Notes: generated by a model not told the origin, from the sequence alone. DNA of 64,000 nt from Candidatus Heimdallarchaeota archaeon (GCA_030603365.1 JAUVXV010000001.1:608001-672000), one strand, 5' to 3'. Shown: positions 30,538 to 31,371, counted from the stretch's first letter. Made by a program: numbers and translations.

Positions 30538-31371
30538 ATGGAAGAAGAATTCAAAGATGAGCTACCTGAAGAAACTGAAGAGGAGATTAATGAAGAAGTA
30601 AAAGAAGAACTTGAAGATGAGCTTGAGGAGGAAGTAGAAGAGTTCATTGATGATGAGAAAAAAGAGCTCGAAGAGGAGCTTGAAGACGAAATAGAGGAAG
30701 CTTCAGAAGAAGTGGAAGAAGAACTTGAAGAACAATCTGAGGAAGAAATAGATGAGCTTGTAGAGGAACTTGAAGAAATTGCAGAAGATGAAGAAGAAAT
30801 AGAAGAGATTGAGGAAGAAGCAGTTGAAGAAGTTGTTGAAGAAGCTGTAGAGGACGTTGTAGAAGAAATTCTTGATGAAATGGATGAAGAAGTTCCTGAA
30901 GATGTTGTAGAAGATGTTGTAGAAGATGTTGTAGACGAAGTAGAAGACGAAGTAGAAGAAGTGCAAGTAGTTTCTGAACCTATACCAGAACAGATTCCAG
31001 AGGATGTTAAGAAAATAGGTGGTAATATCCAGATTATCTTGAAAGATGTCGATGGTGATTTCATCCCATTTGGATATGAACTTCAGAAGAATAAACTCAT
31101 TATTAAATCAGATGAAGCAATGAAGGTTAAAGTGGTGTTCTCTTGGTTCTATAAATTGAAGAAGAACAAAGAAGAGATTTTTGGAGCTACCAGACTAAAT
31201 GCAGAAAAGGTTGAGAAAATACTAAGTAATCCTATTTACTTTGGAAAGGTATACTTCCAAGGAACATTTGTAGAAGGTAATCATGAACCAATATTAACAG
31301 AAAGATATTGCAAATTAAATGATATAAATGTTGATGAGGTAAAGGAAAAATATCTTTCTTCAATGGCATAA
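30538..31371 (+). CDS. Acidic low-complexity protein with C-terminal large-serine-recombinase DNA-binding (Recombinase, PF07508-like) domain; no catalytic domain
   Basis: About 140 aa of E/D/V/L, then PFGY....L.I..DEA..V..VF and ILSNPIYFG.......GNHEPIL. Confidence 0.75.
   Translation: MEEEFKDELPEETEEEINEEVKEELEDELEEEVEEFIDDEKKELEEELEDEIEEASEEVEEELEEQSEEEIDELVEELEEIAEDEEEIEEIEEEAVEEVVEEAVEDVVEEILDEMDEEVPEDVVEDVVEDVVDEVEDEVEEVQVVSEPIPEQIPEDVKKIGGNIQIILKDVDGDFIPFGYELQKNKLIIKSDEAMKVKVVFSWFYKLKKNKEEIFGATRLNAEKVEKILSNPIYFGKVYFQGTFVEGNHEPILTERYCKLNDINVDEVKEKYLSSMA

Follow-up and report, generated by a model that had tools for sequence, protein, structure and literature searches.

The open reading frame at 30538..31371 (+) of the window, by which we mean the whole stretch of 64,000 nucleotides of a Heimdall (Asgard) archaeon that was analysed, encodes a protein of 277 aa that combines two unlike halves. 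About 145 aa of polyacidic low-complexity sequence occupy the usual place of a catalytic domain, and the C-terminus that follows is, as judged from sequence and structure prediction, a genuine Recombinase domain (RD) fold of large serine recombinases (LSR) without the catalytic domain. We tentatively regard this acid-RD protein as a domesticated, non-catalytic RD protein that might act as a nucleic-acid mimic or decoy regulator, a reading built in part on analogy and to which we would give somewhat less than an even chance.

The Recombinase domain and its acidic tract

The frame is present exactly as the first-pass annotation of the sequence had drawn it, and the position given there for the first of the motif residues, 31066, encodes Pro177 of the string IPFGYEL, from which the motifs PFGY...EA..V..VF...ILSNPIYFG...GNHEPIL read as described. 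The RD comprises aa 177-277, corresponding with the stop codon to 31066..31371 (+), as delineated by PF07508, AlphaFold2 (AF2), Foldseek and profile comparison. The annotation had proposed HMMER and structure prediction as ways to check its domain call, and both bear it out. The PF07508 Recombinase family of Pfam, with a gathering cut-off of 21.1 bits, scores 21.4 bits against the whole protein and 24.2 bits against its C-terminal 133 aa, and PF00239 is absent. A HMMER search with the same C-terminal 133 aa against 1.8 billion representative proteins returned 83 matches; 26 of the shorter ones, aligned as A2, served as input for an AF2 model and for a profile. In the model, residues 31-133 of the C-terminal 133 aa reach pLDDT values of 90-97 and are arranged as a β-hairpin, three helices, a second β-hairpin and two helices. 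Searched against the PDB with Foldseek, it found LSR-DNA complexes in all of its top 12 matches, including the LI/A118 integrase (4kis and 6dnw, E 1e-5 to 1e-4), SPbeta (9dxh/9y66) and Bxb1 (9iu9), while the A2 profile aligned with chain 4kis_A of the A118 integrase across the whole RD (E 7.5e-17). The PHROG 'integrase' and NCBIfam CcrA families align over the RD portion alone.

The earlier view that the protein carries no resolvase motif or catalytic domain is upheld, for a Pfam scan of the protein found no match to PF00239 Resolvase at E<=1, and the same profile does pick up five other ORFs in this genome. No match to the zinc ribbon PF13408 (Zn_ribbon_recom) was found in the protein by Pfam scan either. 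Since the protein extends no further than the final helices of the RD model and contains a single Cys in its whole length, it has no zinc-ribbon/coiled-coil domain. The reference for the comparison is the RD of the Listeria phage A118/LI integrase, PDB 4KIS (Rutherford et al. 2013, PMC3783163), which has the same fold, two β-hairpins round a helical bundle with an HTH core, and shares the motifs P-F-G-Y, EA..V..iF, iL.NP.Y.G and G.HEPI (Foldseek probability 1.00). The acid-RD protein differs from this integrase in having no catalytic domain, no αE helix and no zinc-ribbon/coiled-coil, in the acidity of its minor-groove linker and recognition helix, and also because its gene lies on no recognisable phage or integrative element.

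The acidity of the two contact elements deserves closer comparison. In the structure of the LI integrase bound to attP, the RD, whose fold contains the HTH core, touches DNA via the αE-β6 linker, in the minor groove, and via helix αH with Tyr207/Asn208 (PMC3783163). With the contact elements defined from this structure, we compared 12 orthologues of the acid-RD protein with 69 other RDs. The linker, aa 147-176 (30976..31065, +), contains the conserved KKIGGNIQIILKDVDGD in alignment A1 and is modelled with pLDDT <50; it lies at the position of the αE-β6 minor-groove linker of LSRs but is acidic. The 10 residues preceding FGY have a mean net charge of -2.2 in the orthologues versus +1.0 in the other RDs and include two to three acidic ones in 12/12 orthologues; a basic residue at positions -5 to -2 before FGY occurs in none of the 12, as against 25 of the 69. 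The recognition helix has a net charge of -0.3 in the orthologues versus +1.5 in the others, and differs between orthologues (NAEKVEK, SIDEIEK, ETDLIDI), every one of which retains one to three Lys/Arg in it. Canonical binding to att sites is doubtful because linker and recognition helix are acidified in 12/12 orthologues, and the change of both DNA-contacting elements, as read from the alignments, argues against a classical att-binding factor. The proposal of such a factor in the first-pass annotation is thereby weakened. The RD of the A118 integrase is itself about neutral overall, so that charge by itself does not rule out DNA binding.

The polyacidic tract covers aa 1-146 (30538..30975, +), with 59% D/E and a net charge of -82. 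Its 86 D/E, 4 K/R and 43 V/I/L/M/F agree with the earlier description of some 140 N-terminal residues consisting almost wholly of E/D/V/L, and V/I/L recur with a period of about 4. TRF finds several in-frame tandem repeats in the tract, among them the perfect 12-bp repeat that had been noticed before, GAAGATGTTGTA, which extends over 30898..30935 (+) in 3.2 copies with 100% match, codes for EDVV repeats and points to expansion of the tract by slippage. Extreme acidity is no general trait of this genome, since the tract holds the most acidic 100-aa window (63% D+E) of any six-frame ORF in the 3.65-Mb assembly and only four ORFs of the genome reach 45% D+E by the same six-frame reading; inspection of the remaining acid-tract ORFs gave no functional hint. 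Among orthologues the tract varies in length from 125 to 202 aa while keeping D+E at 57-59%, and the net charge ranges from -66 to -104 across 13 orthologues. AF2 renders the tract as long helices of low confidence only, and the full-length model is poor (mean pLDDT 45), carrying no information on docking between tail and domain. The antisense ORF 30534..31064, rich in Ser, was considered as a gene and rejected as the mirror image, or complement, of the GAA-rich tract.

Conservation and relatives

Within the genus, orthologues are present in 17 of the 24 other genomes, according to a six-frame search of 83 genomes of the class, and shorter paralogues occur in three (G010, G019 and G022). The same search found no orthologue in other genera among the 83 genomes; the sole match outside the genus is weak (E 3.3e-4) and lies within a 1290-aa ORF of G055. 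A close homologue of named source comes from a Candidatus Heimdallarchaeota archaeon, and the gene is single-copy in the present genome. The RD is 53-75% identical among orthologues, with dN/dS of 0.09-0.39 (Nei-Gojobori), and at least 13 full-length orthologues, ranging down to about 53% identity, preserve an uninterrupted frame. The tail gives dN/dS of 0.14-0.26 by the same method, values to be read with the caveat of a low-complexity alignment.

The signals around the frame are conserved as well. Promoter and leader lie at 30475..30537 (+), with ATGGCCCTTTTGTATAAATATTTAAGG (TATA-like, 30483-30501) and the Shine-Dalgarno sequence AAGGAG at 30524-30529. About 65 nt upstream are conserved in 14/14 orthologues compared, those of clade D (see below) included despite their different genomic context, in the order ATGGCCCTTTTGTATAAATATTTAAGG, about 22 nt, TTAAGGAG and ATG; the similarity ends upstream of ATGGCC, and no conserved motif beyond the promoter itself was found among the orthologue upstream regions compared. 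Downstream, a terminator-like hairpin read from the sequence, AAGGAAG/CTTCCTT, is followed by a T run (31393..31419, +), and every orthologue has a hairpin with T-run 20-60 nt past the stop, the sequence of which differs. The spread of orthologues, the dN/dS values, the conserved promoter and the terminator hairpins together indicate a live, self-contained gene and not a decaying integrase. By these sequence criteria it is a self-contained monocistronic unit under purifying selection, kept in one Heimdallarchaeal genus, and the domestication that the first-pass annotation had suggested gains from its genus-wide conservation, its purifying selection and its own promoter.

RD-only proteins as such already exist and are common in databases, forming an uncharacterised kind. 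The closest non-orthologous relatives (P0013, P0014 and P0016) have 148-176 aa, PF07508 only and a charged helical N-terminus. Among these, P0016 is MCG3215765.1, a Heimdallarchaeota protein of 170 aa that NCBI names 'recombinase family protein', and an RD protein of the same type is found in G019 within the housekeeping row PAN-aTrm56-DUF2110-RD. The ESM Atlas also has RD-only clusters, of 89-145 aa. These database proteins are the nearest sequence relatives of the acid-RD protein, with 39-48% identity, and like it have the RD without Resolvase; unlike it, they have no polyacidic tract of 125-200 aa, and their linker and recognition helix are neutral or basic. Further removed is a second uncharacterised class of RD proteins without the Resolvase domain, four metagenomic proteins of 356-369 aa (P0015, P0017, P0019 and P0020), which have HTH_23, two tandem RDs and, at the C-terminus, a winged HTH (TrmB/ArsR-like); more distant still are true LSRs such as P0022, with Resolvase, Recombinase and Zn ribbon. 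For proteins with the RD alone, or with an acidic tail on it, a literature search found neither a description nor a functional study.

The assembly of 3.65 Mb is 89% complete, and the acid-RD protein is its only PF07508 match. The five ORFs with a Resolvase domain in the same genome comprise two IS607-like MerR+Resolvase proteins, one truncated protein and two Resolvase proteins of about 250 aa with a compact RD; they range from 130 to 252 aa, with no match to Zn_ribbon_recom. The RD of the two ~250-aa proteins is 25-32% identical to that of the acid-RD protein, and no Resolvase gene that might form a split recombinase was found adjoining the acid-RD gene or its paralogues among the neighbouring ORFs scanned. 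This Resolvase+RD pair, encoded at G000:C2:49042-49794 (-) and G000:C15:328373-329062 (-) (loci L049 and L048), carries an intact YVR(V/T)STADQ motif. Throughout the five genera of the family the C2 copy is 72-92% identical, and hardly any genome lacks the C15 paralogue, an unusual degree of conservation which, at the level of sequence, suggests a housekeeping role. We considered these recombinases as trackers of the cassette arrays described below and discarded them, because they are core in all five genera and thus do not discriminate.

The island anchored on an RNA gene

The setting of the acid-RD gene is defined by an unclassified structured RNA gene of about 330 nt at 12466..12805 (+), recognised by its fold and conservation in a GC-richer segment directly after a PAC2 gene. 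Its 5' and 3' ends pair in a long helix, and the energy of the fold is -115.7 kcal/mol (z -2.9). No Rfam match was obtained for the RNA gene at E<=1, and none for the window; identification with SRP RNA or RNase P RNA was rejected, as both sit elsewhere in the genome. Of the 24 genomes of the genus, 22 have the gene, and three further genera show weaker matches to it. Its 3' strand, about 45 nt, is what had been called the 42-bp repeat. This repeat has seven copies in the 3.65-Mb assembly, all within the window and on the + strand; the first is the 3' strand of the closing helix of the RNA gene, for which there is only one complementary 5' strand, at 12521. The six extra copies of the RNA 3' end start at 15453, 16247, 18575, 19373 and 20130 (all +), and the last extends over 28904..28979 (+), 1.6 kb upstream of the acid-RD gene and on its strand, the distance reported in the first-pass annotation. 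No copy of the RNA 3' end that would resemble an attR was found downstream of the acid-RD gene (nhmmer --max, E<=100), nor any tRNA near the gene in the genomic contexts examined. The repeat core, CCTG-TT-CAGG (12767-12780 and the six other copies), is invariant and lies in an imperfect dyad, in which 8 of 14 arm positions match, 7 of the inner 9 among them. As read from alignment A3, it is similar to the crossover sites of serine recombinases, with TT as the central dinucleotide; the resemblance may merely reflect the RNA helix.

We compared ORF maps of 25 loci with a tree of three flanking proteins. In the outgroup genera (G002 and G004) and in the sister clade D (G014, G028 and G022), the order is PAC2 - RNA - k11 (112 aa) - Elp3, with two small extra genes between RNA and k11 in G022 and without PAC2 and k11 ORFs in G002; the RNA site has no further cargo, extra repeat or acid-RD gene. 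In the outgroup genera this empty site goes together with the lack of the acid-RD gene from the genome. Clade D has the gene elsewhere, directly after two β-helix genes and beside a backbone matching contig C12 of the present genome, and in G014 it lies at least 75 kb from the RNA gene. In clades A-C, to which the present genome belongs, the order becomes PAC2 - RNA - cargo - acid-RD - 0-2 variable genes - k11 - Elp3, with a cargo of 0-17 kb that is different in every genome and contains 0-6 further copies of the RNA 3' end. Here the acid-RD gene is without exception part of the island and shares its strand with the RNA gene and the repeats; it is the only gene conserved within this hypervariable island, having variable genes on both sides. 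In our window 18 kb separate it from the full RNA gene; in G025, which has no cargo, it begins about 150 nt after the RNA gene, and in G009 and G024 its promoter is preceded, at a distance of about 20 nt, by a decayed copy of the RNA 3' end. Extra repeats occur only where the acid-RD gene occupies this locus and in 0/5 genomes where it does not. Cassettes, too, are confined to loci at which the gene abuts the RNA gene.

In evolutionary terms, the empty RNA-k11-Elp3 arrangement is ancestral, being the one seen in the outgroup genera and in clade D. A scan of neighbouring ORFs and of part of the cargo ORFs found no integrase domain, and a search for direct repeats flanking the copies of clade D and G015 found only paralogous gene fragments. 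The acid-RD gene is farthest from the RNA gene, which is the position of the oldest insertion, and it probably represents the earliest cargo that the island has kept and not the island's integrase. The monophyly of clades A-C is weakly supported (0.67), and one ancestral event may lie behind the whole arrangement. These comparisons divide what had been claimed about the adjacency of gene and repeats. Chance, which the first-pass annotation had allowed for, does not account for it in clades A-C, where the synteny proposed as a check holds and the gene is linked to the RNA and repeat locus in every case; in clade D the gene persists elsewhere, unlinked. The further idea of a component of the cassette system loses support, since the empty arrangement is ancestral and the gene looks like the oldest cargo rather than machinery.

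Several other genes of these loci recur. A protein of 122 aa and unknown family, encoded at 31501-31869 (+), is the second most conserved in the island; its gene lies downstream of acid-RD here and immediately upstream, on the same strand, in G017, G009 and G024, so that the gene order of the island is permuted, and G020 likewise has it, on a contig ending before the RD gene. Two paralogous membrane proteins with a C-terminal zinc ribbon (17842-18591 and 29661-30437, +), 85% identical over 300 nt, belong to a family recurring as island cargo in G016, G024, G020, G030 and G031. A protein of about 270 aa with PF00198, the catalytic domain of 2-oxoacid dehydrogenase acyltransferases, adjoins the acid-RD gene in three genomes (L091 685-1497 in G009, L088 715-1539 in G030 and L042 8064-8876 in G011), and at the paralogue locus of G010 (L044 3511-4125) a PF00198 protein adjoins the 178-aa RD-only paralogue. 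After the clade D gene at L034 (G014:C43) there is a 684-bp insert, absent in G028, with two ORFs (78 and 109 aa) and flanking direct repeats of 92 nt (10328-10419 and 11104-11195, 86% identical) that duplicate the 3' end of a neighbouring 121-aa gene, constituting a second, unrelated insertion with a duplicated gene 3' end beside an acid-RD gene.

Possible roles of the protein

How could an RD deprived of its catalytic partner come to be conserved with so acidic a companion? In the reading that we tentatively favour, the gene would descend from an archaeal serine recombinase and keep its RD fold only, giving a protein unable to cut or join DNA. The folded RD would serve as a scaffold or as a weak, non-canonical DNA anchor, while the tail would either autoinhibit the RD or bind or sequester basic proteins that themselves bind DNA, for example histones, recombinases or nucleases. 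The role of mimic or decoy is suggested by an acidification of the protein throughout, which extends even to the two elements with which an RD normally contacts DNA. The acidic tail of HMGB1 autoinhibits its DNA binding, and the acidic tracts of ANP32, SET and nucleoplasmin bind histones; Ocr and ArdA are phage DNA mimics, but are folded and not disordered tracts. The decoy idea would thus stand on composition and on the analogy with HMGB1, ANP32 and Ocr. HMGB1, ANP32, SET and nucleoplasmin likewise combine a folded module with more than 100 aa of Asp/Glu, conserved in composition over sequence, although proteins of the HMGB1/ANP32/Ocr/ArdA kind have no homology to the acid-RD protein. We know of no archaeal example of a folded module with an acidic tail.

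Other explanations have to be weighed against this decoy role. One is a conventional DNA-binding transcription or chromatin factor, with the RD on an operator, either in its own promoter or in the promoters of neighbouring β-helix surface-protein genes, and with the acidic tail as an activation or histone-contacting region. It can appeal to the HTH core of the RD fold (PMC3783163), to the regulator-like combination of RD with HTH and wHTH domains in other proteins without a catalytic domain, to the strong conservation of the gene's own promoter and to the NosD/β-helix genes that adjoin it in both contexts (G014, G028, G022, G018, G027 and this window). We nevertheless consider it rather unlikely: the recognition helix varies among orthologues, so that no shared operator is expected, no conserved motif was found apart from the promoter, and β-helix genes are numerous in these genomes and do not lie beside the gene in G025, G024, G016, G009 and G017. 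A decaying integrase remnant, that is, a pseudogene whose 5' half has turned into simple sequence, would accord with a tract of about the length of a catalytic domain and with perfect 12-bp repeats, typical of slippage; yet the frame stays intact in at least 13 full-length orthologues at identities down to about 53%, dN/dS is well under 1 in both halves, promoter, Shine-Dalgarno and terminator are conserved, and composition is kept while length varies. This origin is therefore extremely improbable, and on the strength of dN/dS and promoter conservation we reject it.

The status of sole conserved gene in a variable island is also how the island's own recombination factor would be expected to look, and the restriction of cassettes to loci where the gene abuts the RNA gene likewise counts against the decoy role. 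In that case the protein would be an accessory factor of the cassette system, its RD binding the RNA 3'-end repeat as an att site so as to target, inhibit or direct recombination done in trans, for instance by the ~250-aa Resolvase+RD pair. Much of the island fits with it: the constant membership of the gene in clades A-C on the strand of the RNA gene and the repeats, its place directly after the RNA gene in G025 (about 150 nt), the decayed repeat about 20 nt before its promoter in G009 and G024, the scanned neighbouring and cargo ORFs that yield no integrase around this one conserved gene, and extra repeats confined to genomes with the gene at the locus (0/5 otherwise). The dyad of CCTG-TT-CAGG round TT recalls serine-recombinase crossover sites, and the genome does encode Resolvase+RD proteins whose RD is 25-32% identical. 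Against this, the linker and helix that should contact DNA are acidified, and a diffusible factor should act in clade D too, where the RNA site is empty; given that clade D has the gene and an empty site, the correlation in cis fits a shared history, through a single event, better. The core Resolvase+RD recombinases are present in all genera, with cassettes or none, and the closing helix of the RNA already explains the conservation of the repeat. At the 3' ends of RNA genes, a length of 45-60 nt is more typical of the direct repeats used by tyrosine integrases. The genome also has no zinc-ribbon/coiled-coil LSR on which an RDF might act, and the directionality factor considered in the first-pass annotation, which needs such an LSR, is disfavoured in a genome where the protein is the only PF07508 match. 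On balance the accessory role is unlikely. A more elaborate version, a site-marking or regulatory subunit of a split, integron-like cassette-capture system of serine-recombinase type, appears to us decidedly improbable; in it the RD would recognise the CCTG-TT-CAGG core in the RNA 3' end, the two ~250-aa Resolvase+RD proteins would catalyse in trans and the acidic tail would gate access. If true, it would explain both the sole conserved gene of the island and why no integrase was found among the ORFs scanned there.

The likeness to integrons and to islands anchored on tRNA or tmRNA genes lies in a conserved recombinase-related gene amid variable cassettes, each of which carries a short conserved site from the 3' end of an RNA gene. 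Unlike the conserved gene of an integron, the acid-RD gene encodes no recombinase catalytic domain of whatever class, occupies the end of the array that is oldest and most remote from the primary site, and persists without the array in clade D; the hallmark of integrons, an active tyrosine integrase beside the primary site, has no counterpart among the neighbouring and cargo ORFs scanned. There is no positive evidence for a new mechanism, nor that the gene runs the island.

The RD itself and RD-only proteins in databases were known already. What is new is the fusion to 125-200 aa of polyacidic sequence, the acidified contact surfaces and the status of sole conserved gene in an RNA-anchored island. 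With its purifying selection, its own promoter and its remodelled DNA-contact surfaces, the protein offers a clear case of exaptation. It also provides an Asgard example of a design that joins a folded module to a long acidic tract and that is characteristic, among eukaryotic proteins, of histone chaperones, acidic activators and DNA binders subject to autoinhibition. Finally, as the only constant gene of a cassette island with no visible integrase on an undescribed RNA gene, it is a necessary control for studies of that island.
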